From assembly GCA_008632985.1 (NCBI GenBank), contig QPGO01000097.1, positions 124,001 through 188,000 of the forward strand: DNA of 64,000 nt, given 5' to 3'. Numbering within the stretch: position 1 is the stretch's first letter; the number at the start of each line of letters is the position of its first letter. Under the pieces are notes generated by a model. It had not been told where the DNA came from and did no database searches. It worked only from the letters and a program-made list of their open reading frames with translations. The position numbers were made by a program, and so were the translations under genes. Origin of the DNA: Psammoneis japonica. Lineage: Eukaryota. This document shows positions 9,121 through 60,166 of the stretch, piece after piece.

Positions 9121-10738
9121 TTGTGAACTTCGATAAGGAGTGTTAGATCAACAACAACTTTGATCTTGGCGGCAGTACCATAGCAGATAGCAGGTGCCAT
9201 TTAGTGAACCTTATGCTTATCAACTTTTTAGCAGGTGTTGGTTACTGATGGTTTCTGTACCTGGTTGCGGGTGCGATGAACACGCGCGAGGAGAGCACTC
9301 GCCCACCGCAGATCGGTGGGGGTGAGTCTTTATTATTTGGAGCGAAGGTAGCTGGCAGCGAGCTCTCGGCCTCGACGGGACATTGTTGTTGCAGCCTCTC
9401 CTTGTCGCAACGCCAATGGCTTGGCCAGAGCTGCAGTGTATGTGACTGTTTCAACCCCTGTTCGACCCCCCACCGTCGTCTGGAAAATGTGTTTGCTCTT
9501 GTTCAGAATTCATGCTCTCTTGTTCAGAATCATGAAGGGTGTCTGGCAATTGTTAGAACCTTCCAAGTGAGATTTAACAGTCAATGGAAATCAGTTGCAT
9601 CACACACACATTCTTGACAATTTCACACATCTGCTCATTTCAACATTGTTTTTGCATCCATCCACAACCAAGCTGACCTTCCAAACAGGAAATGACAGTC
9701 AAGGAAACTTGTCACTTGCTTCTGTCTCCATCTTGACAACCGCCATTGTTCATTTCTGACAACAATCATGTTCAATTGTCTTGTCAACCTGTTTGTGCAT
9801 TGGCTCCATGATGCTGTTCATTTTCTGCTGTTTGATTGTTCCATTTTGTTGTTTCCACACTGTGTGCCAAACAATGCCCCCTTTGTCCTGTTCTTGTTTT
9901 TCTCCTGCATTCCATCAGCTCCTGTTGTCCACCGCTGTCCCCACATGACGGGTGTGGTGTTTTGGTCCCCATGTCCTCCCCCTTGCAACCACTCTTGCTC
10001 TCTCCATTGTTGTCTGCACTGGGCAATGACGTCATCCTCCAATGATCAATCTTGCGTTTTCCTTCTGTTTGATTGGCCAAAGCATTGCCTGCAACTGGAG
10101 AAAACTTTGTGCCAATGATCATTTTTTGTGCATGTCTTGTGTTTCTTACAATCTTGTTTCATGCACTGCTTTTGCTCACCTTTGTGCCCTCTCTTGTTGC
10201 CCGTCTTCCTTTGTGTCTCAGGTCGCATGTCCATGTGTCTGTGTGAAGAAAAGATGTGTGTGCAAGTGTCAGTCGTTTGCATTGTGCACCCAATCTCCAT
10301 GCACTCACCACTTTTTTCCTCTTTCTCACCTTGTGTCCTGCATTTTGTTCCATCCCATTTGCAGTGCCACTGCCTGTTGCTGCAGCTCTCATTTTCATGT
10401 GTCACTTGCGACTTGAGTTTGCATTTTTTGTGTCTTGTGAGGGAGGGACAATTTGTGCTTTTGGCCAAACTGTGAGCCCCACCATCAGTTGATTTCTGCC
10501 AGCGTCGCTTTTTCAGCAACAATTTTGTTTTTAAATTCAATGTTTTTGTTGCAATGCAATGGTTTGAATGATTTGAAATGACCTCAATGAATCATTTGGC
10601 CATTGATGATGCCCCACACGCATGCAACAAGTTTGATTTTGTCACATGTTGAGATTGAAAATTTCACACTTCTGCCAGCACACCCCCATTTCCAGGACTT
10701 CAATCAGCCCCTTTTTTCATTTTGTGTTGTCATTGACC

Positions 10739-11900
10739 ATGCCACCCAAAAAAAGGAAGAAGCCGAGCCAACCAGTTGCTGACGACAACAATTCCAGCCA
10801 CATCAGTGGCACTGGCAGCCGTGGTGAGGGGAGCTGCTTGTGTTGCTTGAGCACCAGGCCAAGTTCCTCCTGCCAGGCAGCCCAGGTGAGACTCCAGGAC
10901 TGGCCCTTGGCAACATCAAGGCCCATCATCTGCAGCTGCTGCACCGTCTGATCACCCATCAGCTGCTGCTGCTGCTGCAGCCTCCATCAATGAAGAAGCC
11001 GACTCCTCTGACAATGTTTCTGAGAACTGTTCCCCTCTGATTTGGAAAAAAGACATTGAATTCCTCAAGCAGCACAACAAAGTCTCTTCCCACAACACTT
11101 CTGAGCTGCTTGGAGCCTCCAAGCATTGTGCCATTTACGGCATGAACCCAAACCAAATGTCTGGCAATGATTGCAGAATGTGGCTTTTGTTTTGCTGGAG
11201 GATGCACGGCCACACAAAAACCAAAATGAAAAGATGTGCAAGCAACTGCAGCAAAAGTGCAAAGCCCACAGTGCAAAAATTGCCGCTGCAAACAAGACCA
11301 TTGCCTCTCTCCAGAAAGCTCAGAAACAGGCCCTTCATGCCAGTGAAATGACAAATTTGGAGACCAACCTTGTGAAGAAAAGTGGGCAACTTGAAGGTGG
11401 GTCATGCTCTTCTGTTCTCTCTGGGTTCTCCATCCAAACAGGAGATTCGTGACACCATGAATTGCTGCTCACTCCTGGATGCTGGTGAGAAGTCTGAGTG
11501 CACCTTCACCTTGATGGTTTGGACCCAGTCTTCCCAAAAAACACAAAAAATGACAAGGACAGGTCTGACAATGAAGTCAACAAACCTGAAGTCAGTCAAA
11601 AAAGTTTCAGGAGAAGGTTGGCCCCTTGGCCCTCAACTTCATGAATCAAGAACAAAATGCCTTTGCATCCCACCTCAGAACACAAATCAATCACATTCTG
11701 GCTGCTGCCCAAGGCCAGCAGTGCCTTGTTTCCTGCTGTCTGGCAAAGCATCTTTGAGAAATGTTGTGGAGTCTGCAGCTCCAATCACCATGATGCAGGT
11801 GATGAAAATCCTTTTCCCCTCTTCATTGAATCTTCTCCATGTCACTCACAATGGCTTTGCGGTTCATTTGTCTTTTGCAGGTCAGCGCACTCCTGTTGAC
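10739..11900 (+). pseudogene. Degenerate ORF with N-terminal NLS-like motif and coiled-coil/acidic segments, probably TE-borne
   Basis: MPPKKRKKPSQP start; fragments such as MCKQLQQKCKAHSAKIAAANKTIASLQKAQKQ; broken by frameshifts and stops. Confidence 0.35.
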
Positions 11901-14200
11901 TTGCTTGCTTCCCCTCCCTCACCGGCATTGAATTGATGGTCGAGGAAAACAGTGCCATTGCATGTTGTTGCAATGCAGCCCATCTCTGCACCCCCTGCCA
12001 CTTTGGACAATTGGCCCCATCTCTGTGGGTGTATTTTTTGTTGCCTCTTGCTGTTGTTGTCCTCCTTTGTTGCACTTGAACACCAATGAAAGATTGCAAT
12101 CAGAGCCAACACAAAGTCACCAACTTTTGTGCCAAGAACAATGGGCCAACTGCAACCCACTGCATCAAGAGTGCCATTTGGGAGGCACTTGCCAGTTGAT
12201 CACTGCAAAGTTTCTCCTCACCAATGTGTTTTGGCATCATGAGGATGATCTGATTGACAGCCTGCACAACATGGATGATGCACCAGCCACACCCAAAAGC
12301 AGTGATCCAGCCACTGAGGATGTCACTCAAGAGTGTGCATGTTTGTGCAATCATTTCATTGCCAATGTCCCTTTGGCAAATTCCAAGCAGAAGTGCACTG
12401 CCCCGGACATTGCATGTTTCACAAAGCTGTGTGGCATTGTCACAACCTCTGACCGTGCATTGGATGGCACTCTCAATGGACCTGGGAACCTCAATTCAGG
12501 GTGCAGGCTTGGCTTTGTTTCCTCAAACAACAATTTGGAGGGGCAGAGGAACTGAACAAGCCAGCTGTCACTGCAAACACAGGTTCGGCTGCTTTTGCAA
12601 TGGACATCCCAGTTGGAACAACTCTTGATTTTCTGTCACACACCAAGGGAACAGGCCACAGCAACCTTGTTCCAGTGTGGAACAAGTTGTTTTCTCACCT
12701 TCCAAGCAGGATGATGAGGTGCAACCAAATGGAAAGGAGCCAGATGCAACCAAGAAGCTGGAGCATTCCATGGTGGACAACAACAACATGTTTGATGATG
12801 CTCATGGATCTGCCAGAGTTTGATGTGTCTCAGTCATGTCCTTTTTGGAATGTCCCAACTGCAGCAACCCCATCTGTCATCCCAAGAAGCAGTTCCTTGC
12901 ATGCATTGTCAATGCAGTTGTCACCTTTCTTAAAGTCACCAAATTTTGGATGCCTCACCACAGTCATGAGCTGGCTCCATTCTGTCTGGCTTTTCATGCA
13001 GACACATCCAATCCTCATTGGAGCTGACACTGCTCAGGTCATGGTGTTCATTCCTGTTCTTTCAAATTTGATTGGGTCTGTTCTTGCCAATCTTCATTGT
13101 GCATGAAGCAGACACCTGCAAAGACCCAAGACAAGGCATGCAACAGTTCCAAGGGGAGCATGCCAAAAATGCCGTGCTTTCCTCTGCCATGAGGGATGTC
13201 CCAAAACATGAGATGAGTCAAGAGCTGAGAAATGTCCTTGCACCATTTGCAAGAGGCAGCTGCCTTGCCATGATGATGCCTTTCCTCCATGGCCACCATG
13301 GCAGCCTCCACTGTCTCCTGGATGTTCTCTTGTTCCACCAAATTGCAAGCAAACAACGGATTGTCACCAAAACGCTGTGGCATGTCACAGCCCCTGTTCA
13401 TCTGGGAGATGTTGCTGGAATGGGAGTTGCAGTGACCTTTTGTGTTGCCAGTCATCATGCAAAGTCAAAAGTGGAGATGAACAAAGCCAAGAGATGGCAC
13501 CACAATTGGGAAACCAGTCTTTCACTTTGACAGTTTAAGCAACTCAGTGATGTCTCATGCAAAGTGCTGTGGCAGAACTTGATGCACGTCTCCTGTCCAA
13601 GCTTTGGCTGGAGGTTGGCGGTGGAATCATTGCTTGTCTTGGGGTGTGGCAACACCATTCCAAGTGTTGACCAAAGGGAGTGTGGCTGCAATGACACTCA
13701 TCATGATCAAAATTGCCCAATGCCACAAGAACGGGTTGTGCTTGCAAACAATCCATGTTGTCACAAGAAAAGGTGGAATCGCCAGACAGCACAACTGGGC
13801 AAACAAAGCATGACCTGGATGGGCAGCTGTTGCTGCTGAGTTGATCAAGGGAAGATTTGAGATCATGCTCCCGCTTGCTTCTGCCAGTCACCAGTGTCAA
13901 GAGAATGTGCTCATTTGTTTTGGGGCAGCACTTCTCATTGTGCATCCACTGACAAGACTGGACAACCTGGGGATCACAAAAGACCCTTCTCACACAATGG
14001 CTGCAGAAAGGAAAATTGGCACACATGCATTGGAGGGAAACTGGGACCCATGGGAGCAAAAATGGGCTCTGGGCCAACAAAGTCAAAATGCTTGGCTTTC
14101 ATGCATTGCAAGGTGGCAGAGTGGGAGAGAGACTCGTGCTCACAGTCACTCTCCTTGGCACATTTAGCCCAAGAAAGAAAAGCCTTGTGCAAACCATGGT
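11900..14200 (-). pseudogene. Degenerate Plavaka-like DNA transposase
   Basis: Minus-strand fragments DSTFSCDNMDCLQAQPVLVALGNF, WSTLGMVLPHP, GNTKGH...RGCD and GIFGMLPLELLHAL resemble the D..EP..TLG.F / W..LG / GD..G / G....P.E.LH motifs recalled for Plavaka transposases; no search run. Confidence 0.5.
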
Positions 14201-14249
14201 GGAGATGATGCTTCTTCATCATGACAGCCAGCTCTTCCTCCACTGGATG

Positions 14250-17200
14250 AGGCTTTTTGGTGGCATTGGTGTCACGAATGCAGGGAGGTTGCAACACCAA
14301 GCCTCTTTCATCTCCTCCAAATCAGTTGCCTCCATTCAGTGCAATCCTTCATCATCCTTGTCATTGTTGGGGAGGGAAGAGGATGACACAGAGCATTGTG
14401 CTGAGAGTGCATCGTCAAACTCCTCCTCAAGAAAAAGCATGTCATCACAGAAGATGCCATCATTGGGAAGGTCTGGGGCAAGCGGCATTGCTATCAGTGT
14501 TGAAGCCCCCAAAATGAAAAAGGAGAAGGATCTCAAGAAGAAGGCCACCAATGCTGTCATGTGGTGCTCCATCTCTTTCTGCCACAAGGTTGCTGGATCC
14601 AATGGCATCACTCCAGCAACTTTTGAGCCTGCATTTGTTGACATTCTTCAAGAATGCAGTGAGGCTGAGCACACTCATCTTTTTCAAGAACTCATTGCTC
14701 CTGCCATCAACAGCAAGAAGTCCACACACATCTCCAACCAAGTTGCACCACGTTTTGCTCAGGCTTGTGCCAACAAGGCATTTGCTGACAACATGCAAGG
14801 GTTCAAGTTTGCCAACCAGCCTCTGAACAACTCGACTGCTCTTTGTCTTGCATTTGTCAATGTCCTCAACTTTCTTTTTGTGGACCATCCCCACTGTGCT
14901 GCCGTCATGGAAGATGGGTGTGAGATCTCCAAGCACTCTGTCAACCCCAACTCTGGCAAGACAACAGCCAAATGCATCAAGAAATTGGATGTGCACGTCA
15001 GTGGCCAAGCTCATGACACCAACATCATGGAGTGTTGTCCAGTGTCACATGGTTGCTTTTGGCAAAAGCAGAAAGCAGTGGATCATGAGCAATGGCAACA
15101 CTCGTGAGATCACAACAAACATGCTCAAGACATTCAATCCATCATTTGCCCATTCATCCAGCATGGTGTGATGCCAGAGTGTTGCCCCCCAAGCTGTCCA
15201 TGATGCCCAGGACATCAGTGTCAGGGCTCTTGACATTGCTGCATGTTTCACAAATCTGACGATCCAAGATTTGGAAACAAATGTTGGTCGTGGCCCTGCC
15301 AGACCCTTTGGAAGCCAGTGTGTCTCACATCAGCTTGCCGAAAGAAAAGCCAACTTGAATGCTTCTTCAAACAAGCAATCTGCTTGTTTGCCATCAACAA
15401 CTGGAGCTGCTTCACCCAGTGAGAAATCCAAGTCATTGTTGTCTGCAGACAAGATTGAGCTCTGCAAGAAGATGGGCATGCTTGTCATCTCACATGACTC
15501 CCGTCAGCCTCCCAACATCCCGGTTGCGGCTAAGAAGAACTCTGACTCAACATCTGAACAGCACCTTTGCGCTCATTTTTTGACTTGTGGCTTTCTTGTA
15601 ACTGTCCCAGATGCAAGAAGCTGCGCATTGCCATCTTTGTGCTCTCCCTGAAGCAAAGTGTGCCAAGTTGGTCAACTTTGAGGAGAAGATGAAAAATCTT
15701 TCTTTTGCACCTGAGAAATGTCCTGTTGGTGCACTGGTTTTGTCTCAGATGAAACCAGCCCATTTGTTTTGTTTGAAAACATCCACTGACCACTCACCTT
15801 GATTTTTGTTTTTGTTCATGTTGCACCACCAGCTTGCATCAGCATTTTGTCCCAGGCTGCATTGGTGTCCCTGCAGATGAAGTTGTGCCCCCCTTGCCCT
15901 GGGGTGCAGAATCTTCCAAGTCTGCGTCACTTGGTTTGGTGCCGAAAATGTGCCTGATGTCCTGCCGGTTGCCTCTGAAGAGATTGAGGAGTTCTGTCCA
16001 GTCCTTTCCCCTGTGGTGACTGGAGGCTCTCCCTCTCAATGCATCCCAGCAATTGACAACTCATTCAAGAAAGCTGAGTGTGAAGAGTTCATCTGGACTC
16101 AGTTGCCACTTTGTGCCAGCCCCAATTGGACCAACCTTTTGACAAGGACAGTGTTTGTTAGAAATTTCATGTCTGAAGCTGTTTTTTTGCCATGTCTTGT
16201 TGCACCTTTGGAAGTTGGGTTTCCTGCACTCTGTTTCCCAAGAGATGCCATCCTTTGACTCTGGCAGTGTGGTCAACAATTGGGAGGATCCATGTTGTGT
16301 GACACCCAATGCTTTCCATTTGTGCACCCTTCTTTGTGAGCACAACAATGTTGACTTTAATTCTCTCTGAGGGCACCGTGCAGGATGGGAGCAAGAGTCA
16401 GACCTCAATGAGACACATGTGTTTGTCAGACCTTGGCAGGATTGCTCCATTTTGATGGAGACATGGCTTTGTTGGTGCAGCGGGTCAGTGGCATGCACGT
16501 TGGAGCACATCAGAATGTTGAGCGCATTGTGTTGCATCTTGATGGCAAAGTTGATCTCATTGCTGTCAAGATCACAGCTTGCATCTGCTGAGATGGTGTT
16601 CCAGCCTGTTGCAATGGGCACAACATGGAAGAAAATTTTCAAGACTGTTTTAATGGCAGGGACAAACTGTCCATTTGTGTCAATTCAGAGAAAACTCACA
16701 ATGCTCTTGTCAAGAACTCAAGCAGGGTTTTGATCTCATTTTTGACCAACAATTGAGACCATGTGTTTTGAATTGTCATCTGTCACCTCAGAGCTTGGTT
16801 GACAGTGACAAATTGTTCAAGCAGCCTTGGCCAGTTTTGGACAGCTCATTCCAACCCAAGCCTTTGTCCATGGCCTTGAATGATTTTTTTTCACTGGAAC
16901 ACAAGCTGGAGTGCTCCAAAGCTGTGGCAGAACATGATGTTGTGCATTGGATCTAGAATGCTTGGATTGCTTTTCCATCTCAAGAGATCCACCCAATTGA
17001 CGATGATGCTGCTGAAGCTCACCACACAATGAGGTGCAACCCAAACCTGGTTTGGATGCATGCATTGATCCAGCATGGCTGTGAAGTTGCTCAACAATTT
17101 GGTTGCAATTTTGGGGACCCCCTGACCCACACAATTGGGATGGTGGATGGTCACAATGCCATCAGCAGCTTGTGCAGCATGCATTTTGTGCCCCACATGT

Positions 17201-18775
17201 TGTCGAGATCATGCACCCATTCCTTCCAAGGATTGAGTTTCTATTGCAAATCACAACTGACTCCATTTGAGGTGGCAGCAGGCGGTTTCTCATGTGCTCC
17301 CAGATTCCTTGAACCCTGGAATTCTCCAGGATGGACTGTGGATTTTACCACTTCACAAGCACCACATGGATGACAACTTGCAAGCTGATGTTGCACAATT
17401 GTTGGAGCACACCATGTTCAATGTCTGTGAGTGCCTTTGCCATTCATGTGATGCAAGGCTTTCCACAGAAGGAAGTCCCAAATGCACTCAGCTTGAAAAA
17501 GCTCAACCTCATTCTGTCTTTCCTTTGCAAGCTTCTTGGGCACTCACACAACACCTGCACTTTGACTGTTGGGATTGTGCATCACAAGCTTGACAAGATC
17601 ATCTTTGTTCTTCCTGATTAAAAGTCCAAGATTGAGTGCCTCCTCTTGGAGGCAGCAACCTTGAATGGCATTTTGGAGCATCATGCTTGGCATGATCACA
17701 CACTTCGGTGTTGATTTTTTGTTTTCCAGAGTGTTCTTTGCTTGTCCATTTGCTGTCTTTTGGACTGTGCCAAGAGAGCACTCCACACCCTTCTGCAACA
17801 AAGATTGAGAACATTGCACCACGTGATCCGTGCTGCCAAGGAATTGGTGATGCAAGAAATTTTGGTGGTGGTGGTTGCTGCCGGGAATTTCAATTTTGGT
17901 TCTTTGTGCTGTGGAGCCCCATGGCAAGCTGAGGTTTGACCTTGTTCTTGTGGTCCTGAGGACAGGTTGCTGACAATGCTCTCAATTTTGTTGTTTCCCT
18001 CCTCCTGCTTGCTGGCATGGTCACTTTCATGAAATCTGTTGGCAAATCCATTGATCTGGAACTGGTTGCCTCCCTTTTTTCCCATGGCATCCTCAAAAAT
18101 TTGGTCCGCCTCAACCGGGTTGACAATGTGGTTAGCTCTGGTTGGCACAATCTGGGCACTGCCAAGAACTCTCTTCAAGGACAACAGCTTTTGTGTGTTT
18201 GGTCTGCACTTTGCATTTGTGGGGTGTTGGCATCAATTCCCAAGTGGCAATTTGGCTGGTGAAAAGAGCGGGCCAGCAGATGACATGTCTTGTCTAGTTG
18301 ATTGCAACCTGCCTCATTCTGTCCGTGTCTCTCAGCTGCTTCAGAAGCGTCCTTTTCTGACAAGAGCTGCCACATGGCTGGTGTGCTGTCAACTGTTTGC
18401 CGAGTCATCACCAGCCCCTGTGCATTTGTGGGGGTGTCGGCATCAACTCCTGAGAGGCAATTTGGCTGGTGAAAAGAGTGGGCCAGAGCAAATGACATGT
18501 TTGTCTGATCAATCCCAACCTGCCTCATTCTGTCTGTGTCTGATGGCTGCTTCAGAAGTGTCCTTTTTTGACAAGAGCTGCCACATGGCTGGTGTGCTGT
18601 CAACAGATCTCTGAGTTGTCACCGGTCCCTGCACAGACTCCACCTCACTTGGGACAGCTCGTGCATGGCAAATCCACAATTTCAGATTTGTCACGGACAT
18701 GATCTGGGATGTTGATGCTTGTGGAAGATCTTCCAGTTCTTTGGCATCAACTGCATCTGGCTGTGCATGCCCTGC
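14250..18775 (+). mobile_element. Degenerate retroelement (gag-like ORF, RT, RNase H), DIRS/Ngaro-like by inference; 3' part truncated at the satellite
   Basis: Gag-like fragments 14250-15700 with a Cys/His cluster; RT-like fragments LSPQSLVD, PVLDSSFQP, IHPIDDD, NPNLVWMHA, and HMDDNL at 17363 (YxDD equivalent); RNase H-like VDNVVS..W and LAGEKSGPADDMS. Confidence 0.6.
18212..18604. repeat. Imperfect tandem duplication, period 209 bp
   Basis: tgcatttgtgggg... at 18212 and 18421; both copies share ggcaatttggctggtgaaaagag and gacaagagctgccacatggctggtgtgctgtcaac. Confidence 0.9.
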
Positions 18776-19519
18776 TCAACTTGCCAAACTTGCAAAAGTC
18801 GCCAAAGTTGCCAAGCTCATCAAAGTCACCAAAGGTGCCAAAGTCACCAAAGCAGACAAACTCACCAAAGTTGACAAACTTGCCAAACTCACCAAAGTTG
18901 CCAAAGTTGACACACTCAACACAGTTGACAAAGTTGCCAAAGTTGACAAACTGGCCAAAGTTGCTAAAGTTGACAAACTCGCAAAACTCACCAAAGTCGC
19001 CAAAGTTGACACAAACTTGCCAAAGTCACCAAAGTTGACAAACTCACCAAACTCACCAAAGTTGACAAAGTCGCCAAAGTTGACAAAGTCACCAAAGTTG
19101 ACAAAGTCACCAAAGTCACCAAACTTGCCAAACTTGCCAAAGTTGCCAAACTCACCAAGCTCACCAAACTTGCCAAACTCACCAAACTTGCCACAGTTGA
19201 CTTGCCAAAGTTGCCAAACTTGCCAAAGTTGACAAACTCACCAAACTTGCAAAACTTGTCAAAGTTGACAAACTTGCCAAAGTCACCAAACCTGCCAAAG
19301 TTGACAAACTTGCCAAACTTTTCAAAGTCAACAAATTGACAAACTTGCCAAGTCAACAAACTCACCAAAGTTGACAAACTTGCCAAAGTCGCCAAAGTTG
19401 ACAAATTTGCCAAAGTTGACAAAGTTGGCAAACTTGCCAAAGTTGACAAAGTTGGCAAACTCACCAAAGTCACCAAAGTCACCAAAGTCACCTGAGTCAC
19501 CAAACTTGCCAAAGTTGAT
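18776..19519. repeat. 9-bp satellite (ccaaagttg / ccaaacttg / acaaactca variants), left block
   Basis: Directly visible 9-bp periodicity. Confidence 0.97.
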
Positions 19520-19764
19520 TGACAGGATTTGAACAAGATTTTAGTTTGTCACACACAATTGTGTGTGCTCTTCGTTCCGCGCGTGTCGCGCGATGTAGTT
19601 TGCTTTCGAGCCACTCGGCTCACAAGAACAACAACAGCAGTGCCGACATCATGACACCAGTCTTTCGGCTCCTGCAATGGTCTTTGCACGGAGATTCATC
19701 TGCCATTTAGACAGCAGCAAGGAGTCATTGTTTTCTTCCACCCAGTCATCTTCATTTTCTGTCA
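19520..19764 (+). repeat. 5' LTR
   Basis: tgacagga...ttctgtca; aligns without gaps to 26562-26806. Confidence 0.96.
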
Positions 19765-20579
19765 GATTGACAGTCTTGCTCTTTGTCATCCATTGAGCAT
19801 TCATCATCGGTCATCGAGAAATTTTTCAATGATGCGCACGGTTGGCGGTGGAAGTGCACATCTGCCTTCTTCACTGCTGCATGCTGGATTAAATCTACAT
19901 CTTTGGATTTACATCCAACACCTCCCATCGTTGGATGTGTTTGTTCAACGGATGTTTGTTTGACCAGGAATTCCCGAATTCTCAGACATCCAAGATTCCG
20001 GATTCCTCACAGAGGATCCCACCAAACCATCTGCTCGCGTCCATGTGCACACGATGTGAACCCTTGACTCTGGCCCTGCTCCATGCACGCCAAGTCTACT
20101 GCCTTGTATCTGCACCGGATTGCTGGTCTTCTACAGTCCTGCAAGGTCAACGAGGACAACTGTGAGAGGAAGCAGTTTGTGGTTGCAGCTGCATTGGGGC
20201 GAGGGTGCATTTCCCACGTTTGTTCATCCCTCCACAGTGCCAAATTTGGCCGGCCTGATCGGGTTGTCCAACCAACATAAAATGAGAACGGTTTGGAGGT
20301 CTTGTCCACCTCTGGTTGGCTTGTCAGCAGGGGTTTTTAACCCGTTGCTCCGCTCTCAGGCAACCCAAAGCGTCGCCAGCTGTGGGTTCGGACGTGCCGG
20401 CACAACTCTACGGACCAGATGGGAAGCTCAGCACTTAACTGCAAACAGGATGTCACAGCCTGGCGGCTTCTGACTCCCAAGATAGTTCCAGACATCAAGT
20501 CAAGATTCAAGTCAAGTTTCAAGTTGTTTCAAGCTCACCCTCCGAATCCAGCTGGTTCCGACATCCACCCAGTTGCAAC

Positions 20580-23500
20580 ATGGTTCTCACCAGGCAACAA
20601 CAAATTGATGGCCTCGAGCACATTCCAGGCACTGTTCTGAATCAAGCTGCAGACAGTCCGTTGCACTCCGCTCTCAACATTGATGGAACCAACTCGCATC
20701 AGGACCTTTTTCCTTTTACTCCGACACAACTGGATGCCCTTGTGTGCAACGATGGCACCAACCAGATGCCCTTGCCACGTGGTTGCAAAGCACACACAGC
20801 TGCGCTGATTAGCCTGCACACGGCAAAAGTGCGAGGCGGTGTGGATGTCAGCAACAACCCTCAATTGTTCACTCACGAGGAGTTCACTGACTGTCGTCTC
20901 AGTCCTGAGCATGTGGCATCCCTCTCCATGGGCACAGCGCCATCTGCTCCCACCCCTGGCTCTTTGCCACCCAAACCACGTGACCCTGTGCGTGAATTTA
21001 AACGAGGCATCAAACGTGACCCACTCACCTTCACGACTCTCAAGTCAGACAAACAGTGGCACACGTGGCACACCTCCATCATCGCACAGGCCCGCTCCCA
21101 GGACATTGAACTCATTCTTGATCCGAAGTGCAAGCCCTCTGCAGCTGAGGACAAGGCCCTGTTTGATGAACAACAGAAGTGCATGTTTGCCGCATTCGAA
21201 CAGATCTTGCAGAATGACAAAGGCAAGGTGCTTGTTCGTCAACATGTTGACTCCTCTGACACTAAAGCGGTGTGTTGCGACCTTTCCAAGTGCGCCCTCA
21301 CTTTTGCTTGTGCATCCCTGGAGTCCTCGACCCTTCTCACGTGCCTCACCACCGCTCGCCTCGGTGATGGCACCTGGAAGGGATCCACCCATGCATTCAC
21401 ACTTCACTGGCAGGACCAGCTTCACAAGCACGAAGCTCTTGTCCCGGGTGCAGACCATTTCTCTGCTGGCCAGAAATGTGTCATGCTTGAGAACACCGTT
21501 CATCCTGTCAAAGAACTCCATTCGGTGAAGAACCAAGCTGATCAGTTCCGCACGCAGAATGGAAAGGGTCTCTCTTGTGAAGAGCACTGTGGACTTCTGC
21601 TCTCTGCTGCAGCACAGTGCGACAGCACGTTCGCCCCCAAGACGGCTCCTTGCACTCCGCGCCGTGCCATCTACGAACATGACCCAGTCCCTGACGACCC
21701 TGATGATGATGCATTCTTCGACATCGACAGTGATGTTGACGTCATCCAAGCTTGTGCTGTGCAAACTCGCGGCAATTCCCTCACCAAGGAGCAATGGCGT
21801 CGCATCCCTCCAGACCATCAGTGCATTTGGGACACCTTGCCCCAGTCCACCAAGACCATCATTCTTGGCTCGTGCACCACCCACACCGGCAACTGCCATG
21901 ACTTGACAGCAGTCAACCTGCACGACCTTCGCATTGGCAGCAATGGCGATGTCAACTTGTCCGCCAACACTCATGATCTTGCGTCAGCCTTCGCACAATC
22001 CGACGCCACAGCCGATGCAGCCGATGCTGACCCCACTCTGGCTCATCTCACCAGGCGCAAGCCCCTGCCACCCGGCAACTTGCAACATCTCCTGGCACCT
22101 GAACGGCCTCCTTCCGCCCGTTCTGGCAAGAAACCGCCCGGATCTGCACCTTCCGTCCGCTCCAACACGAAGCCCAATGACACTGACATTGAGATCAACG
22201 GCCACAAATGCCGTCGCGTCAACAACCACAATGTCGTCCACTCTGCCTCGACCCACAAGTCAACTCGCAAAGGTGCTCTCGTGGATCGTGGTGCAAACGG
22301 TGGCATCACCGGTGATGATGTTTGTGTCATTGCCCACGCTGGTCGCCAGGTTGACGTCCAAGGTGTCGATGATCATCAACTGGTCGACATCCCCATTGTT
22401 GCTGCTGGTGGTGTCATCCACATGCAACGCGGCCCTGCCATTGCCATCCTTCACCAGTGCGCCTGCGCTGGAAAGGGGAAGACGATGCACTCTTGCGGCC
22501 AGCTCGAGTGGTGCAAACACGATGTCAACAATCGGTCCATCAAGGTTCCCAATGGTCTGCAGTGTGTCACCACTGTTGATGGATGCATCATTCCCATCGA
22601 CATTAAAGCCGGCCTCCCGTGCATCGCCATGCGCCCGTGCACTGACGCCGAATGGGACACTCTGCTGCATGTCATTCTCACTGGTGATGACACATGGGAT
22701 CCATCTGTCCTTGACCACCAGTTCACGGATGATGAGACGTGGCATGATGCCGTGTCTGACCTCCAAGACGACCCGACTGCCAACCTCTTTGATGAGTTTG
22801 GCAACTGTCGTCACCGCCATGTTGTCAACAATGCCATGCTTGCAGACTCCGTCCTTGATGATCACCTGCTCCCGACATCTCATTTCTTCTACGAATGCCA
22901 TGAGCGCAAACTCAATCCCAAGGATCCCGACTTTGAGTCCCTCCACCCCCACTTTGGCTTTCTCCTGAAGGACACTGTCCACCACACTTTTGATTGCACA
23001 ACGCAGTGTGCCCGCATGCCAGCCAGCACGCACCTGAAAAAGGCACACAAATCGCCCAACCCGGCTCTCAATGTCCACTGACGTGATGAACCCGTTGCCA
23101 CTGACATGGTCCACTCTGACACCCCTGCTGTTGACTCTGGTTGCACCAGCGCCCAGCTCTTTGTCGGCATGGAATCTCTCGTCACTGACGTGTGTGGCAC
23201 CAAAACTGACAAAGAATTTGTCAACACCCTCGGAGACAACATTTGCAATCGCGGTGCCCCGTCCAAGCTCATCAGCGACCGTGCTCAGGTTGAGATCAGC
23301 AACAAGGTTCTTGGCATCCTTCATGCCCTCTTCATCTCCAGTTGGCAAAGCGAGCCTCACCACCAGCATCAGAATTTTGCTGAACACCGCTGCCAAACTG
23401 TGAAGACCATGGCTGACACCATCATGGATCGCTTCAGGTCCCTGGCTTGCACCTGGCTGCTCGCCCTGATGTGCGTGTGTTTTGTGCTCAACCACACAGT

Positions 23501-26445
23501 GTCCGCCAAGCGACGCATTCCAGCTCTGGGTGGGACCTTGCACTGCTGCACTGTGACATCAACAGTTTTTTGGATCGCGTCGCATGTCGCGCACGTGCAT
23601 TTCTACGTGTTACATTCTACAAAATTGTTTCATGCTCCCTGTTTTGCAAAGCCAAAGAGGCTTTCTATTTTCAACATTTGTGAGAACAAAAATGCGCTGG
23701 GCATGTTCTGCAATGTCTGAAGAACACACCTGGGCAAACTGTCAATGATGTGCTCCAAGTGTGAAGGAGGAGACACGTTCGTAAAATTGCCTCTTTTTCT
23801 GTTGGTGATCATTTGCACTTTCATTGCAGTGTGAATTTGCTGCGGAGCTTGCACACAGAATTCCACGGGCCCAATGTCGCACGGAGTCCCACCTGGGACT
23901 GGAACCCGTCAAGCTCCACTGGCGCACCCCCACCGAGGTGCCATCCAGATCTGCTCCCAACATCAGCCCACTGGTGGGAACCAGGGCACTGCCACCTGGA
24001 TGATTCCGACTGGCCGTCCGAATCCCATGAATTACGTGGTCGCTTCGTTGGCATCGCCGAACATGTTGGTCACCAAATGACATTCAAGATTCTTTCCGAC
24101 GACACTCAGAAGATTCTCTGCTGTTCCAACGTGCGCTCCGCCCATGATCCATCTGCTCCAAACCTGCGTCTTGATCCTCTTGATGAGAGATCTGCTGACC
24201 CTGTCATTAAATCCTGCCATGACTCCAAGGATTTGCCAGATTCACCAGATGGGGAGATGATCAGGATGCCCAAAATGCCGGTCTTTGACCCCGAGGACAT
24301 CATCGGACACACCTTCCTCATGAAGCCACAAGAGGATGGTCAACGCCACAGAGCCTGCATCGTCAAAGCCATTGAGGACCACAACTGGGAAATTGGAGGC
24401 AATCCTGAACTGGTCAAGTTCATTTGCTCCATCAACAATGACAAATGCGAGGAAGTCCTGGCCCACAACGACATCATGCACCACATTGAGCAAGAAGACG
24501 AGGACACCACTCTCTGGAAGTTCCGATGCATCGCATCGCACGAAGGACCATTGCGACCCCATGATCCCCATTGGAAAGGCTCAAGCTGCAACGTCATGCT
24601 TGAATGGGAGAATGGGGAGATCACATCCGAACCCCTTGCCATCATTGCCAAGGACAACCCCATCACCTGTGCCATCTGCGCGCGTGAGCACAGCCTTCTA
24701 GAAACCGAAGGATGGAGATGTTTTTGCAAGACAGCACTTTGTCAGAAGAGGCCATTCCGCATGGCCAACCAAGCCAAGTTGCGCTCCTTTTGCACTGCAC
24801 CACAACACAAGTGCGGGCATGAAGTGCCACGGGACTGCAAGCATGCCATGGCCCTTGATGAGCGCAACGGCAACCGCAAGTGGGGAGACGCAACGGACCT
24901 CGAGATGACTCAGCTTGATGAGTGCGAGGTCTTCCATGACTGCAGACACCACAAGGATTCCAGTGCTCCATCAGGACACAAGAAGATCCGGGCACATCTC
25001 ATCCACAACGTCAAACATGACGGACGGCACAAAGCAAGGCTTGTTGCCAATGGACACCTCACAGACGTGCCCATCAACAGTGTCTGTTCTGGAGTGGTGT
25101 CTCTCTGTGGCCTGCGAATGATGATCTTCCTGGCCGAACTCAACAAACTAGAGACCTGGGCCACTGACATTGGGAATGCCTGCCTTGAAGCTGCAACCAA
25201 GTAGAAACTGCACATTGCAGCAGGCCCCAAGTTTGGCGACCTGGAAGGACACATCCCTGTCATCCACAAGGCCTTGCACGAACTCTGCAGCTCTGGCCTC
25301 AGATGGCATGAACGCTTTGCTGATTGCTTGCGGTGCCAAAGGCTTCTTTCCATGCAAAGCCGAACCCGACATCTGGCTGCACAGGAATGGTGACCACTGC
25401 GAATGCGTGGCAGTGCATGTGGATGACCTGGCCTTCACCATGAAGGACCCCCAGGCTTTTGCAGACACCCTCATGGAGAAGCACAAGTTCAAGCTCAAGG
25501 GCACTGGACCATTGGAGTTCCATCTTGGCTGCAACTTCACCCGTGACCCAGACAGTGCCCTGTGCCTTGCTCCCCGCAAGTGCATTGAGTGCATGGTTGA
25601 CAACCACGTGCGCCTCTTTGGGGAGAAGCCCCGCACTGATGTGCTTTCACCCCTTGACAAGGGTGACCACCCTGAGCTCGACACCTCCAAATTGCTCAAA
25701 CCCGATGGCATGCACCAACTCCAATCCTTGATTGGATCCCTGCAATGGGCAGCATCTCCAGGTTGCATTGACATTGCTGCGGCTGTCATGTCCCTGTCTG
25801 GCTTCCGTGCAGCGCCCCGTCAAGGCCACCTAGACCGTGCCAAATGCATCTGCGGATTCCTCTCCAAGATGCGTCATGGCACCCTCCGAGTGCGCACCGA
25901 GGAGCCCGACCATTCGGACCTCCCTGAGCCCATGTGTGACTGGGCTCAATCTGTGTGTGGGGAGGCAGAAGAGCTGCTCCCGCAAGATGCACCCAAGCCG
26001 CTTGGCAAGTTCGTCACCACCACACACTGCGTTGATGTGAACTTGTTCCATTGCATGCTCACTGGATGCTCTGTCACCGGCATCCTCCATTTCCTCAACA
26101 AGTTTCTGGCTGATTGGTTCTCTAAGAAACAAGCAACAGTTGAGACCACCATGCATGGATCCAAGTTTGTTGCCGCAAGGATGTGTGCGTTGAGCAGATC
26201 ATTGATCTGCGCATCACTTTGCGTCACCTTGGCGTTCCCATTCGTGAAACATGTTGCATGTTTGGGGACAACAAGTCAGGTGTGGACAGTGCCACCATCC
26301 CGCACTCCAAGTTGCACAAGCGACACACTGCCCTCTCATTCCATTGAGTGCGTGAGGCGATTGCCTCCGGTTTCCTTGAGTTTCATTTTGTCGAAGGCTC
26401 CTGCAACCCGGCTGACATCCTCAGCAAGCATTGGGGTCACTCCTA
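20580..26445 (+). pseudogene. Copia gag-pol polyprotein, disrupted
   Basis: Stops at 23079-81 and 25202-04, frameshifts, MITE insertion in integrase, and near-total Tyr loss (2 Tyr in the 833-aa ORF; none seen in the 463- and 441-aa ORFs). Confidence 0.92.
23512..23910. mobile_element. 399-bp non-autonomous TIR element (MITE-like) inserted in the Copia integrase
   Basis: Flanked by an aagc duplication (23508-11, 23911-14); imperfect ~25-bp TIRs gacgcattccagctctgggtgggac versus reverse complement gacgggttccagtcccaggtgggac; removal restores NHTVSAK-LHWRTP. Confidence 0.8.
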
Positions 26446-26561
26446 AATCTGCCAATCTGGAACCTCCTTTGTCCTCCAATGTTTTGGAACTTTGATCCCG
26501 AGGCTTTCAACCAATCCGACTTCGAATCTGTCGCTGTTGGCCCCTCAAGCAAACTGGGGAG

Positions 26562-26806
26562 TGACAGGATTTGAACAAGATTTCAGCTCATCACACACAA
26601 TTATGTGTGCTCTTGGCTCTGCACGCGTCGCGCGATGCAGTTTGCTTTCGAGCCACTCGGCTCACAAGAATGACAACAGCAGTGCCGACATCACGACACC
26701 AGTCTTTCGGCTCCTGTGATGGTCTCTGCATGGAGACTCATCTGCCATTTAGACAGCAGTGAGGAGCCATTGTCATCTTCCACCCAGTCATCTTCATTTT
26801 CTGTCA
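26562..26806 (+). repeat. 3' LTR
   Basis: Copy of 19520-19764, preceded by a polypurine tract. Confidence 0.96.
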
Positions 26807-28350
26807 TTGACAAACTCGTCAAAGTCACCAAACTCACCAAAGTTGACAAACTCGCCAAACTCGCCAAAGTCAACAAAGTTGACAAAGTGATGAACTCACC
26901 AAAGTTGCCAAACTTGCCAAACTTGCCAAAGTTGACAAACTCACCAAACTCACCAAAGTTGACAAACTCAGCAAAGTCGCCAAACTTGCCAAACTCGCCA
27001 AAGTTGGCAAACTCGCCAAAGTTGCCAAAGTTGCCAAAGTCACCAAACTTGCCAAAGTTGACAAACTTGCCAAAGTTGCCAAAGTTGGCAATCTTGCCAA
27101 AGTTGTCAAACTCGCCAAAGTTGCCAAAGTTGCCAAACTCGCCAAAGTCACCAAACTCACCAAACTTGCCAAAGTTGCCAAACTCGCCAAACTTGCCAAA
27201 GTTGCCAAAGTCACCAATTTTGCCAAAGTGGCCAAAGTTGCCAAACTTGCCAAACTCGCCAAAGTTGCCAAACTTGCCAAACTCGCCAAACTTGCCAAAG
27301 TTGCCAAAGCTGCCAAACTTGCCAAAGTTGCCAAAGTCACCAAACTTGCCAAAGTTGCCAAAGTTGTCAAACTCGCCAAAGTTGCCAAACTCGCCAAAGT
27401 TGCCAAAGTTGCCAAACTCACCAAACTTGCCAAAGTTGCCAAACTCGCCAAACTTGCCAAAGTTGCCAAAGTTGACAAACTCACCAAACTCACCAAAGTT
27501 GACAAACTTGCCAAAGTCACCAAACTTGCCAAAGTTGCCAAAGTTGGCAAACTCGCCAAAGTTAGTTGCCAAAGTCACCAAAGTTGACAAACTTGCCAAA
27601 GTTGCCAAAGTTGCCAAACTCGCCAAACTTGCCAAACTTGCCAAACTCGCCAAAGTTGCCAAAGTTGCCAAACTCGCCAAACTTGCCAAACTTGCCAAAC
27701 TCGCCAAACTTGCCAAAGTCACCAAAGTTGCCAAAGTTGCCAAAGTTGCCAAACTCGCCAAACTTGCCAAACTTGCCAAAGTCACCAAAGTCACCAAAGT
27801 TGACAAACTTGCCAAAGTTGCCAAACTCACCAAACTTGCCAAAGTCGCCAAACTTGCCAAAGTTGCCAAAGTTGTCAAACTCACCAAAGTTGCCAAACTC
27901 GCCAAAGTTGCCAAAGTCACCAAAGTTGCCAAACTTGCCAAACTTGCCAAAGTTGCCAAAGTTGACAAAGTTGACAAACTCGCCAAACTCACCAAAGTTG
28001 ACAAACTTGCCAAAGTTGCCAAAGTTGACAAACTTGCCAATGTCGCCAAAGTTGCCAAAGTTGGCAAACTCACCAAACATGCCAAAGTTGACCAACTTGC
28101 CAAAGTTGCCAAAGTTGGCAATCTCACCAAAGTCATCAAACTCGCCAAAGTTGCCAAAGTTGCCAATCTCGCCAAACTTGCCAAAGTTGCCAAACTTGCA
28201 AACTTGCCAAAGTTGGCAAACTCGCCAAAGTCACCAAACTTGCCAAACTTGCCAAAGTTGGCAAACTCGCCAAAGTTTTGTCAAACTTGCCAAAGTTGCC
28301 AAAGTCATCAAACTCGCCAAAGTTGCCAAAGTTGACGAACTCTTGCCAAA
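26807..28350. repeat. 9-bp satellite, right block
   Basis: Same unit family as 18776-19519; continuous with it once the Copia is removed. Confidence 0.97.
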
Positions 28351-29590
28351 CTGGCCAAAGCGTCTGCAGGAAATTGCCATTTTCACCATCTGCATCTCAA
28401 AGTTGATTTGAGTGGTGCCTGCAAGCACAAAATCTGCTGGACAAGACAAATTTGTTGCCAACACCACCTTGCAGAAAAGACATTCTTAGACACAACTTTT
28501 GACACAAAAAACTGTGAGACAAAAAAATGGGCTGTGCAAAGACCCGGATGTGTGCAATTGAAAATGTCCCAACTTTTGTGTTGTGCAGGAATGCACCAGG
28601 CTTCTGCATGCAAAAGAACCCGTGTGCGCATTTTTCAAAATGTGTGACATGGCAAGGCATGCTTTGAAAAATGTTTGCAGTCAAAACAAAAGACAAAAAA
28701 AATGTTTTTGCACGACACACCATTCCTTGTTTGTTGTTGAGAAATCGTCGTTGGTGTCACCATGGTGCAATGGCTGCGATTGTGTTGTTTGTCTCCAGCG
28801 GCTGCAAGCTCCTCATTTCCGTTGATTTTATTTTGTGCTGATGACACCTGCGTGCACAGCAAGCACTGTGCAGCAGGCTGGTGCTGCGCAGCGGTTTTGC
28901 ACAGACAGCATGCACGTTTGAGCAATTCCTCAAACATTGAGCCCTGTTTGCTCAAACATGACATGTTTGAGCAAAAGGCGGTGTTTCGACAAAACGTCAT
29001 TCAAATCGCACACTGCAGTGCCCACAATGTCAACACATGTTTGTTCGAAATGTTGTCATGTGAAACTTGTGTGTTTTGAGCAAAATGCAAGCACGGCGCA
29101 ACAGCAGCAGGCATCATGAGTGCGCAGTGGATGGACAGATGACGGATGATGATGAGAGGCCGCCCCACCCCCCTCATTGTTCTCAGATGACTGGGGTGAT
29201 GATGGGGTCAGTTGCGTCGACCCGTTTGGGTCAACAATGCTGAAAATTCCCTCCCGACCGAACCCTTTGTTCACTCATGTGTTGGCATGTGCTGCACACC
29301 ATCAGATGCATGCGTGTGTGGTTGTTGCTCCCATTCGGTGGCGTCACTGTGTCATGTCATCGAGGTGTGCGGTGGTCTACTCTCTACTCTCTACAGCAGC
29401 TGCTAGAGTAGAGAGTGCCGGTAGAGTCCAGCTGAGGCGGTGGCAGTGGCAGGCGAATGCCGAGCGCGAGATCCTCGCCACGTCACCCGCAGCACACGCC
29501 CTCCAGCAACTGTAAATGAAAAGTGCGCGCGAGCGCGCAGAGCACATTCACCGTGCGAGAAATTTGGAATGCCACAAAATGCGAACGACA

Positions 29591-59014: not shown

Positions 59015-60166
59015 ATGGCAATGAAGCCGGTCCGTTTGTTCGCGTTTTTCATCACATTGCTCTCTCTAGTAGGGCTTGCTTTTGGAAAGGCATCCCGAAC
59101 GACTCAAAGAGATGCTATTGCATACATTGTTGATCAGGTCCAACTGATGGCAGGCACGGCAAGCCTCGCCGCCGTGCTGAGGCAGGGCGCAAGGATGTTT
59201 CGCACTAGTGAACGTCAACTCCGGCGTTGGTACAAGCACTATCTCTTTTATGGAGAACTACCATTCGACACGTCACGAGAGTGGAAAAGACTTTTGAGAC
59301 GGTCCACTGGGGCTTGGCAAGGAGGACGGCACTTTCGTCCAAGGCACGTCGAAGCCCTTCGAAAGATTCTTGAGCGCAATCCTGAGCATTATCTTGATGA
59401 GTTTGTCCACGATCTGTGCATTGAAACTGGAACTCTGTTTCATCCGTCCACTGTCTGGAGAGCCCTTCATGACAAATTGGGATGCTCTCTAAAGACACAC
59501 GCTGCCGTTGCAAGGGAGAGAAACGAGCGACTCCGACATGAGTGCAAGGTGGCTTTGGCACTTTTTGTTTTCGACCCATGTCAAGTGATCTTTTGCGACA
59601 AGACACACAAAGACAAGAATGCTGCCAGACGCCGTCGGGCTTGGGGGGTGCGCAACGAAGACCTTGTTTTGAAGAAATGGTTCCAGGATGCAGTGCGCTG
59701 CACATGCCTTGCAGCTTGCAACATTAATGGGTTTGTTGTTGAAGCTTGTGACACCGTCAGGAGAGACAATGTCAGTGATGAGGGAGCAGCAGGAACTGTG
59801 GACTCAGACCGATTTTATGAATGGGTAGAAACACATTTGGCACCACAGCTGGGTGACTGTGAAAAAGGAGAGAAAAATTCGGTGGCAGTGATGGATAACG
59901 CATCGACGCACTTTGACCGTCGCATCAAACGATTGATAGAGAAAAAGAAGAACGCGAGGTTGCTGTACACTGCACCCTGCTGTCCCGACCTCAATCCAAT
60001 TGAAAAAATGTTTTCAGTGTACAAAGCATGCCTCCGTCGCCATGGACAACTTGAGGGTCATCAGGCGGATTGGCAAGACTTGCACTATGGGGCGTTGCTT
60101 TCAGTAACTCCCGACATAGCAGCGAAGCACTTTCGAAAATGCGGGGTGCCGGGGATGGAGAATTAG
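59015..60166 (+). CDS. IS630-like DD35E transposase (ORF open but carries substitutions at conserved sites)
   Basis: HTH region (YLDEF...STVWRALH), IFCD, VMDNASTH, APCCPDLNPIE; 35 residues between the second D and E. Confidence 0.92.
   Translation: MAMKPVRLFAFFITLLSLVGLAFGKASRTTQRDAIAYIVDQVQLMAGTASLAAVLRQGARMFRTSERQLRRWYKHYLFYGELPFDTSREWKRLLRRSTGAWQGGRHFRPRHVEALRKILERNPEHYLDEFVHDLCIETGTLFHPSTVWRALHDKLGCSLKTHAAVARERNERLRHECKVALALFVFDPCQVIFCDKTHKDKNAARRRRAWGVRNEDLVLKKWFQDAVRCTCLAACNINGFVVEACDTVRRDNVSDEGAAGTVDSDRFYEWVETHLAPQLGDCEKGEKNSVAVMDNASTHFDRRIKRLIEKKKNARLLYTAPCCPDLNPIEKMFSVYKACLRRHGQLEGHQADWQDLHYGALLSVTPDIAAKHFRKCGVPGMEN

Follow-up and report, generated by a model that had tools for sequence, protein, structure and literature searches.

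TpA loss and overlapping tyrosine-free reading frames in a Ty1/copia-like retrotransposon of the diatom Psammoneis japonica

The 64,000-nucleotide stretch of Psammoneis japonica DNA analysed here (assembly GCA_008632985.1, contig QPGO01000097.1, positions 124,001 to 188,000, hereafter the window) harbors a region crowded with long, overlapping open reading frames (ORFs) devoid of tyrosine, which raises the question of whether these are genes or the residue of a mutation process acting on mobile DNA. The explanation that we hold to be highly probable is that a Ty1/copia-like element lies in a 9-bp satellite of this diatom genome, that TpA was turned into CpA or TpG across about 20 kb after insertion, and that the Tyr-free ORFs are by-products.

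The gag-pol at 20580-26495 belongs to a Ty1/copia-like LTR retrotransposon (19520-26812), in which direct LTRs with TG...CA ends bracket the internal region at a start-to-start spacing of 7042 bp, the 5' LTR measuring 253 bp (19520..19772, + strand) and the 3' LTR 251 bp (26562..26812, + strand). The alignment of the two LTRs contains 24 substituted columns of 251 (20 events) and one 2-bp gap, the events comprising four CA-versus-TG doubles, three differences of TA against CA/TG, five of CG against TG/CA, six other transitions and two transversions; the CA-versus-TG differences are equally derivable from an ancestral CG. The element is inserted in a 9-bp satellite (TTGCCAAAG), which occupies 18781..19517 on the left and 26837..28334 on the right, and a check for a target-site duplication found that the five bases flanking each LTR differ in the alignment, the target being mutated satellite. 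The polyprotein lies in four pieces on the + strand. The gag-protease-integrase start (20580..23078) is open for 833 aa from its ATG, with 0.2% Tyr, 4.0% Cys and 6.1% His, and ends at an in-frame TGA (23079..23081), after which the second piece, from the integrase region (23082..23720, 212 aa), continues in the same frame with a frameshift somewhere within about 23500-23945. The third piece (23765..25204, 479 aa), comprising the integrase C-terminus and the start of the reverse transcriptase (RT), has zero Tyr and a frame change near 25335, and the fourth (25152..26495), which carries the RT with HVDD replacing YVDD, changes frame near 26185, its genuine pol frame covering only about 25341-26185 and the ORF extending beyond it, out of frame, on either side. 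The window RT is colinear with intact polyproteins at 61–67% identity and reaches 19–20 bits with the RVT_2 profile, under the 31.6-bit cut-off, whereas those polyproteins score 97–104 bits at residues about 1200–1580. The copia family is high-copy in DNA sequencing run X1 (12,153 contig pieces, short contigs only), where copies differ mostly by transitions; their context was readable at only 40 of 441 variable places, so that these data do not polarise the TA sites. The ORF of a host geranylgeranyl-transferase beta ends at 9147, and an Atlas search with this gene confirmed a eukaryotic prenyltransferase. Among the 120 matches listed for it in a separate search, the named ones are all diatom records except one transcriptome labelled Tiarina, with identities of 57–74%.

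Beginning about 450 bp beyond this host ORF, a TA-poor block of ~20 kb (9600..29300) was observed, whose two sampled edges each have 0–1 TA in 200 bp. All 19 1-kb bins from 10001 to 29000 exhibit observed/expected (o/e) ratios of 0.01–0.21 for TpA and 1.55–1.93 for CpA+TpG, values that class every bin as TA-poor and CA+TG-rich under the thresholds of a preprint on Bigelowiella natans (Mettrop et al., bioRxiv 10.64898/2026.01.13.699255). Within 20580-26495 the o/e ratios are 0.06 for TpA, 1.52 for CpA, 1.83 for TpG and 0.61 for CpG, as compared with 0.55 for TpA and 0.98 for CpG in the right flank, and 36 TA dinucleotides remain in 19520-26810 against 393 predicted from base composition. The G+C content is 54% in the island and 48% in the flanks, and CpG o/e ranges from 0.05 to 0.24 in the part of the block left of the element. 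The depletion also spans the satellite and a 9-kb stretch without recognisable copia sequence.

The loss of TpA is mirrored in the protein alignments. At 20 gag-PR columns where Tyr is conserved in five homologues, the window reads Cys 12 times, His three times, Tyr once and other residues four times, and at 12 Tyr columns of the RT it reads five Cys, five His, one Leu and one Phe, so that Cys or His occupies 15 of the 20 and 10 of the 12 columns, respectively, and the RT motif YVDD has become HVDD. The same 12 RT columns in 70 relatives contain 774 Tyr, no Cys and 15 His among 840 cells. Read from these homologues, the polarity of the change is clear, with TA as the ancestral and CA or TG as the derived state. 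If every TA were converted, changes at Tyr would make up only ~42% of the expected amino-acid changes. Tyr-free ORFs of at least 100 aa make up 76 of 87 inside the block versus 15 of 93 outside, and Tyr falls below 1% in 8 of 155 database homologues; the low-Tyr fingerprint foreseen in a preliminary description of this DNA therefore does exist, in the window and among these homologues. Tyr absence alone is not specific to TA-poor DNA, as 16 of the 93 outside-block ORFs of at least 100 aa have less than 0.5% Tyr (15 of them none) and 8 of these have no TA-poor patch near them. Copia proteins in public metagenome catalogues, drawn from several lineages, already bear this Tyr-loss scar in part or in full. 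Among the best 80 metagenome relatives there was no fully TA-depleted copy, and RT TpA o/e showed no correlation with Tyr content across them (rho 0.14, p 0.20).

Exhaustive enumeration of TA to CA/TG changes yielded no new stop codon in any frame; the change destroys TAG and half of the TAA outcomes, with TAA to TGA as the sole stop-to-stop path, which confirms the preliminary statement that it removes TAG and many TAA codons without creating stops. The accompanying idea that stops are erased was upheld for TAA and TAG and not for TGA: both strands of 19520-26810 contain 26 TAA, 25 TAG and 332 TGA, compared with 105–124, 120–153 and 278–298 in four control stretches of equal length, so that TAA+TAG is about five-fold lower and TGA slightly higher. 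Stop density is consequently down just ~30% (52.5 per kb versus 70–76 in the controls), since TGA persists and even rises. CpG decay to TpG/CpA, under the same enumeration, can make TGA from CGA. Adenine base editors and ADAR A-to-I editing, the latter with a preference for a 5' U, likewise produce A:T to G:C transitions that never make a stop from a sense codon; the targets of these are guided sites or double-stranded RNA, whereas the process here is a natural one on 20 kb of chromosomal DNA. Repeat-induced point mutation (RIP) makes TAA and TAG stops from CAA, CAG and TGG. Its hallmarks, TpA excess and new stops, were not found in the element, where TpA o/e is 0.06 and TAA+TAG is five-fold down, and the contrast with RIP drawn at the outset thus holds.

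ORFs of at least 100 aa are present in all six frames of the element and are about twice as common as in ordinary DNA. Five long non-pol ORFs measure 432, 353, 312, 239 and 223 aa stop to stop, each with 0% Tyr; the three longest are an antisense ORF (22260..23558, − strand; 369 aa from ATG), an alternative-frame ORF (21907..22968, + strand; 341 aa from ATG) and a second antisense ORF (21045..21983, − strand; 309 aa from ATG). Lengths of 427, 344 and 309 aa had been quoted for them, of which the last is exact and the others are replaced by the stop-to-stop and ATG values just given. The ORFs had also been described as Cys/His-rich in all six frames; the six frames are as described and the richness is clear in the pol frames (9.2–12.7% Cys+His) but no more than modest (5.7–8.8%) among the five long ORFs outside pol, against 4.7% in six-frame control ORFs. 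A Pfam search of these five returned no family, and no match was obtained for eight left-block ORFs and three ORFs at 59-62 kb; a 759-aa orphan ORF had no homologue at near lengths. The element contains 28 ORFs of at least 100 aa, compared with 8.6 ± 2.8 in mononucleotide shuffles (0/200 reach 28) and 22.7 ± 4.1 in a first-order Markov model that retains the TA depletion (27/200 reach 28), while its nine ORFs of at least 200 aa and six of at least 300 aa exceed both models (0/200 each). In-silico conversion of TA to CA/TG in the normal DNA of the window took the count of ORFs of at least 100 aa from 18 per 10 kb to 36, where 38 and 45 are observed. The best-matching 80 metagenome loci, nearly all unmutated, served as intact references, and 33 intact relatives were used for simulation, in which alternative-frame ORFs of at least 100, 200 and 300 aa rose from 13.5, 1.0 and 0.11 to 29, 5.0 and 1.5 per 10 kb, against observed values of 35.5, 8.5 and 5.1. 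The two longer classes lie above the simulated mean (5 and 3 in 5.9 kb versus about 2.9 and 0.9 for the 33 relatives), and the closest relative alone, when simulated, gives about 4.4 ORFs of at least 200 aa and 2.4 of at least 300 aa per 5.9 kb, with a mean maximum of 350 aa. Conversion of TA to CA/TG is sufficient for the ORF excess, and the overlapping Tyr-free ORFs are arithmetic by-products, not genes.

The process acted after insertion, because the LTRs differ at TA/CA/TG sites and because the satellite and the non-copia 9-kb stretch are depleted as well. Pol is broken by the in-frame TGA at 23079 and by three frameshifts, the frame changes being seen against the closest intact relative; the TGA is aligned to Arg in homologues, which is consistent with CGA to TGA by CpG decay. 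Inactivation by missense loss of Tyr, as first proposed, is borne out insofar as conserved Tyr became Cys or His; yet Tyr makes up less than half of the predicted missense changes, and, given the TGA and three frameshifts, missense change is only a possible cause of this copy's death.

In the sequence of events that we propose, a Ty1/copia-like LTR retrotransposon would have inserted into the 9-bp satellite, after which a DNA-level process would have turned TpA into CpA or TpG in the element and about 20 kb of silent surroundings. Such A:T to G:C transitions would only remove or keep stops (TAG to CAG/TGG, TAA to CAA, TAA to TGA) and would convert Tyr codons to His or Cys codons, leaving the polyprotein frame largely open yet essentially without Tyr, including the tyrosine of the RT YVDD motif, and giving the other five frames an about two-fold excess of meaningless Tyr-free ORFs. 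Ordinary CpG to TpG/CpA decay and small indels would in parallel have supplied the real breaks. For the chemistry, which we infer, we favour deamination of the adenine in 5'-TA-3', whichever strand carries it, in DNA that is silenced and methylated, in line with the proposal made for B. natans.

Three other readings were weighed against this explanation. Raised G+C together with the codon structure of a long polyprotein gene might by itself yield long overlapping ORFs, with no mutator involved, and the higher G+C of the island fits such an origin, as does the presence in some intact relatives of alternative-frame ORFs that reach 476 aa (in L038); however, composition-keeping shuffles fall far short of the 28 ORFs observed and the 33 intact relatives need in-silico TA conversion to come into the observed range, so that we regard this origin as very improbable. 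Equally hard to credit is that ADAR-like hyper-editing of RNA, with its 5' U preference, preceded reverse transcription and the element arrived Tyr-free and stop-poor. A-to-G change beside a 5' U is indeed the known ADAR neighbour preference, as the B. natans preprint notes in its Discussion (bioRxiv 10.64898/2026.01.13.699255), and the family is high-copy in X1; but LTRs are identical at insertion and these differ at TA/CA/TG sites, and the depletion takes in flanking satellite and the 9-kb non-copia stretch and stops close to a host gene.

That at least one overlapping Tyr-free ORF is a real gene, overprinted or domesticated, seems the most improbable of all. The ORFs are long (312–432 aa) and their class of at least 300 aa lies above the composition models, but Pfam gave no family for any of them, ORFs of similar length arise when the closest intact relative is mutated in silico, and the ORFs in question overlap a frameshifted, hypermutated element. 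By-products of TpA conversion remain the preferred reading.

The mutator signature matches the type described for B. natans. The main text of that preprint describes hypermutation confined to TpA in giant-virus and virophage DNA that has integrated, with new mutations in mutation-accumulation lines at about 1000 times the background rate, an ADAT2-like deaminase as the proposed enzyme, 324 low-TpA predicted CDS in which reverse transcriptase and DDE endonuclease are over-represented, and an excess of unannotated proteins in clusters (81% versus 58%) (Mettrop et al., bioRxiv 10.64898/2026.01.13.699255). The changes there are exclusively TpA to TpG/CpA and the TA-poor, CA+TG-rich 1-kb windows are clustered, as here. 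In contrast, B. natans is a chlorarachniophyte (Rhizaria) and the present host a diatom; new mutations were measured there and the signature here is a fossil one; TpA depletion is far deeper here (o/e 0.06 versus 0.45 for the B. natans NCLDV region); and here CpG decay accompanies the TpA loss. The main text of the preprint uses none of the words 'stop', 'tyrosine', 'open reading' and 'CpG' and does not contain the stop and Tyr corollary, and this preprint was the only relevant item found in the literature searched on TpA hypermutation in diatoms or its stop-codon effect. RIP in ascomycete fungi, as presented in the RIPCAL article (PMC2621366), resembles the present case in that repeated or foreign DNA is struck by dense, regional transitions which disable transposons, but it acts from C:G to T:A mostly at CpA, creates TpA and lowers G+C, whereas here TpA is destroyed, G+C rises and stops cannot arise. 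Methylation-driven CpG decay is shared by this locus, with the low CpG o/e of the element and left block, the five CG versus TG/CA differences of the LTRs and the in-frame TGA; it accounts for neither TpA nor Tyr loss and, unlike the TpA process, creates stops.

Where a genome is subject to this mutator, its silent repeats are about twice as rich in long ORFs as normal DNA and true transposon genes drop under Pfam thresholds, as the RVT_2 scores illustrate; gene callers would therefore emit many Tyr-free "hypothetical proteins", which could mislead genome annotation. A simple screen for proteins in which Tyr is near zero and conserved Tyr sites carry Cys or His can flag such false predictions and could chart the reach of the editing system across eukaryotes from protein data alone. 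RIP and APOBEC-type G to A hypermutation can make nonsense codons, and here a transposon-disabling mutation process is incapable of them; dense missense change that strips one whole amino acid accompanies a dead element. We consider it doubtful that TpA editing serves marine protists widely as a genome defence, silencing mobile DNA purely by missense and never by truncation and leaving a minable protein scar. If it did, the scar would consist of absent Tyr, Cys/His at conserved Tyr sites and inflated ORFs and could be mined from protein catalogues without DNA, and the open, stop-poor wreckage could feed new genes or dominant-negative Gag-Pol fragments.

A Ty1/copia-like LTR retrotransposon occupies positions 19520-26812, with its coding part at 20580-26495 and LTRs of 253 bp (19520-19772) and 251 bp (26562-26812) with TG...CA ends, and it is enclosed by a 9-bp satellite, TTGCCAAAG, at 18781-19517 and 26837-28334. 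A 211-bp unit, repeated 1.9 times with 87% match, lies just left of this satellite (18212-18604). The RT ORF of the element shares 61% identity with an 1881-aa polyprotein, a reverse transcriptase by name in one source, and 67% identity was observed with the closest intact relative, the metagenome locus L001. These two gave Pfam RVT_2 scores of 97 and 104 bits, respectively, and the only Pfam matches of the element itself were two to RVT_2 at 19-20 bits, below the 31.6-bit cut-off. Since 12,153 short contigs of one DNA run (X1) matched 19520-26810 at at least 88% identity, the element represents a high-copy family. On sequence grounds, the host is a diatom: the TA-poor block harboring the element is neighbored by a geranylgeranyl-transferase beta ORF (7936-9120, minus strand), and among its 120 listed matches the named ones are diatom records (Seminavis, Ditylum, Mayamaea, Thalassiosira and others, 57-74% identity), bar a transcriptome marked Tiarina.

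Every 1-kb bin of the block, from ~9.6 to 29.3 kb, displays a TpA observed/expected ratio (o/e) of 0.01-0.21 and CpA+TpG of 1.55-1.93, compared with TpA o/e of ~0.45-0.87 in the remaining window, two small patches excepted (near 59.5 and 60.6-62.6 kb). Only 36 TA are left in 19520-26810 versus 393 predicted from base composition; 11 of the 36 gather at 19890-20483, the ~600 bp from the 5' LTR to the gag start, and this leader is less fully converted. CpG is lowered as well: its o/e is 0.61 in the element, and the loss is far deeper (0.05-0.24) over the 9 kb on the left side of the element (9600-18700), where TpA o/e is about 0.03. No Pfam family was found in the eight largest ORFs of this left block, which contains 42 ORFs of at least 100 aa versus 23±4 under a Markov-1 model, and therefore older coding or periodic structure may persist there.

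The direction of the change was observed at conserved tyrosines. The 20 Tyr columns conserved among five gag-protease homologues are Cys (12), His (3), Tyr (1) or other residues (4) in the window, and the 12 conserved over the RT core of 80 metagenome relatives are Cys (5), His (5), Leu (1) and Phe (1), where, of 840 cells in the 70 relatives ranking highest for RT TpA o/e, 774 contain Tyr, 15 His and none Cys. The catalytic YVDD has become HVDD and the YEY just before it CEC; the RT core contains 0% Tyr, the median among the 80 relatives being 5.06%, and of the 1971 codons in the four pol pieces only three still encode Tyr. The Cys:His ratio at former Tyr sites (12:3 in gag-protease, 5:5 in RT) and the excess of TpG (o/e 1.83) over CpA (1.52) on the coding strand of 20580-26495 hint that sense-strand A>G is favored.

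Paired LTRs are identical at insertion, and the two LTRs here differ by substitution at 24 of 251 columns, representing 20 events: four CA-versus-TG doubles, for which the ancestor could be either TA or CG; three TA versus CA/TG; five CG versus TG/CA; six other transitions; and two transversions. The six transitions outside TA/CG contexts are one-sided: at each of them the 5' LTR carries T and the 3' LTR carries C. The LTR sites with TA opposite CA/TG, together with depletion across the satellite and DNA without recognisable copia sequence, show that the mutator worked on chromosomal DNA after insertion. Among the 40 best-supported differences from X1, 11 are CA/TG in the window versus CG in other copies, and these are CpG decay private to the window copy.

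Enumeration of all contexts bore out the preliminary description in that TA>CA/TG never turns a sense triplet into a stop, whichever the frame; TAG becomes CAG or TGG, TAA becomes CAA, and TAA>TGA is the sole stop-to-stop route. A:T>G:C editors are not known to create stops. CpG decay, unlike the TpA process, yields TGA from CGA. The claim that stops are erased held only in part: on both strands of 19520-26810 we counted 26 TAA and 25 TAG, versus 105-124 and 120-153 in four control stretches of the same length, whereas TGA persists (332 versus 278-298). Stops are thus thinned by ~30%, to 52.5 per kb from 70-76, and not erased.

The density of ORFs of at least 100 aa is 44 per 10 kb within the 19.7-kb block (87 ORFs) and 21 per 10 kb over the remaining 44.3 kb (93 ORFs). 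The element contains 28, 9 and 6 ORFs of at least 100, 200 and 300 aa, respectively. Shuffles preserving base composition only gave 8.6±2.8, 0.14 and 0, with none of 200 simulations reaching the observed number in any class, whereas Markov-1 shuffles, which keep the TA depletion, gave 22.7±4.1 (27/200 reaching 28), 1.4 (0/200) and 0.05 (0/200). The dinucleotide change alone therefore covers most ORFs of the first class, but not the two longer classes. Conversion of 95% of TA in the normal DNA of the window (30-58 kb) left 50 stops per kb in place of 76, and 36 ORFs of at least 100 aa per 10 kb in place of 18, versus observed values of 38 for the element and 45 for the left block; the mutator suffices for the ORF crowding, as had been proposed. 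When the polyprotein CDS of 33 intact relatives were converted in the same way and the five frames other than the coding one were scored, ORFs of at least 100, 200 and 300 aa rose from 13.5, 1.0 and 0.11 to 29, 5.0 and 1.5 per 10 kb, and the mean longest from 200 to 317 aa; in L001 they rose from 13.7, 0 and 0 (longest 173 aa) to 38.6, 7.5 and 4.0 (mean longest 350 aa). The observed values in 20580-26495 are 35.5, 8.5 and 5.1 (longest 432 aa), based on 21 non-pol ORFs of at least 100 aa, five of them at least 200 aa (432, 353, 312, 239 and 223), and lie at the upper end of the mutator's prediction. These five by-product ORFs, which overlap gag-pol, contain 0% Tyr, and no Pfam family was found in them. 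Of the lengths quoted earlier, 309 aa was recovered exactly, while 344 and 427 correspond to 341 or 353 and 369 or 432.

In the simulations, the TpA process never broke the main frame. When every TA in the 33 intact CDS was converted, 9.2 residues changed per 100 codons, with Tyr the largest single class at only 42%; the others include Thr>Ala, Ile>Val/Thr/Met, Leu>Pro/Ser, Lys>Glu, Val>Ala and Asn>Asp. The real copy is broken in several ways. It has one in-frame TGA at 23079, aligned with Arg in homologues, which fits CGA>TGA, and against the closest intact relative its frame changes at three places (somewhere within ~23500-23945, at about 25335 and at about 26185); in some X1 contigs two bases are missing at 23656, one at 25332/3 and two at 26183/4. 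CpG decay and indels do break frames. Because stops are scarce, the final pol ORF (25152-26495) stays open for ~100 codons past its frameshift. Inactivation by missense, as proposed earlier, is plausible, whether Tyr loss came first or sufficed being beyond the reach of this one copy.

The low-Tyr fingerprint proposed earlier is seen within the window, where Tyr-free ORFs make up 76 of the 87 ORFs of at least 100 aa inside the block versus 15 of 93 outside. Sixteen outside ORFs have <0.5% Tyr: seven in the two small TA-poor patches, one at the block edge and eight in the remaining DNA, about 9% background. The patch at 59400-59800 (1 TA per 200 bp) carries two ORFs, 104 and 172 aa long, that lack Tyr. 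The second, at about 60.6-62.6 kb (1-2 TA per 200 bp), harbors an open 759-aa ORF (60446-62722, minus strand) with one Tyr and ordinary Cys+His (4.7%), for which neither a Pfam family nor a homologue of near length was found; being far too long for a chance ORF, it probably codes for a protein, or did so until recently, and has lost its TA.

Eight of 155 retrieved homologues (median 4.14% Tyr) have <1% Tyr, all among the 150 RT matches, and the Tyr distribution is bimodal. In these eight plus one protein at 1.1%, 56 cells at conserved Tyr columns contain 25 Cys and 19 His, with a single Tyr and 11 other residues, where ten normal homologues have Tyr almost throughout. Two metagenome loci, L055 (1899-2744; RT TpA o/e 0.23; of 12 conserved columns, five still Tyr, four Cys and three His) and L067 (627-1904; 0.28; Tyr 6, His 4 of 12), neither with a stop in its RT match, are, as read from these residues, environmental copia relatives partway through mutation. 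Against this, none of the best 80 metagenome loci was fully mutated, and TpA o/e and Tyr content were uncorrelated (rho 0.14, p 0.20).

RIP, the repeat-induced point mutation of ascomycete fungi, makes stops and has the opposite chemistry, making TpA where the mutator removes it. No published account of the TpA process in diatoms, or of its stop-codon effect, was found in the literature searched. The signature equals that directly measured in Bigelowiella natans mutation-accumulation lines, where changes are solely TpA>TpG/CpA, and an ADAT2-like adenine deaminase is the proposed agent; 124 clusters of TA-poor windows with an excess of unannotated proteins, and 324 low-TpA predicted CDS enriched in reverse transcriptase and DDE endonuclease, are described there, in a main text where the words stop, tyrosine, open reading and CpG are absent (Mettrop et al., bioRxiv 10.64898/2026.01.13.699255). 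The feature in the window is real, the logic first put forward for it is sound and quantitatively adequate, and the corollary is modest but useful: under the mutator, long ORFs become about twice as numerous and Tyr is lost.
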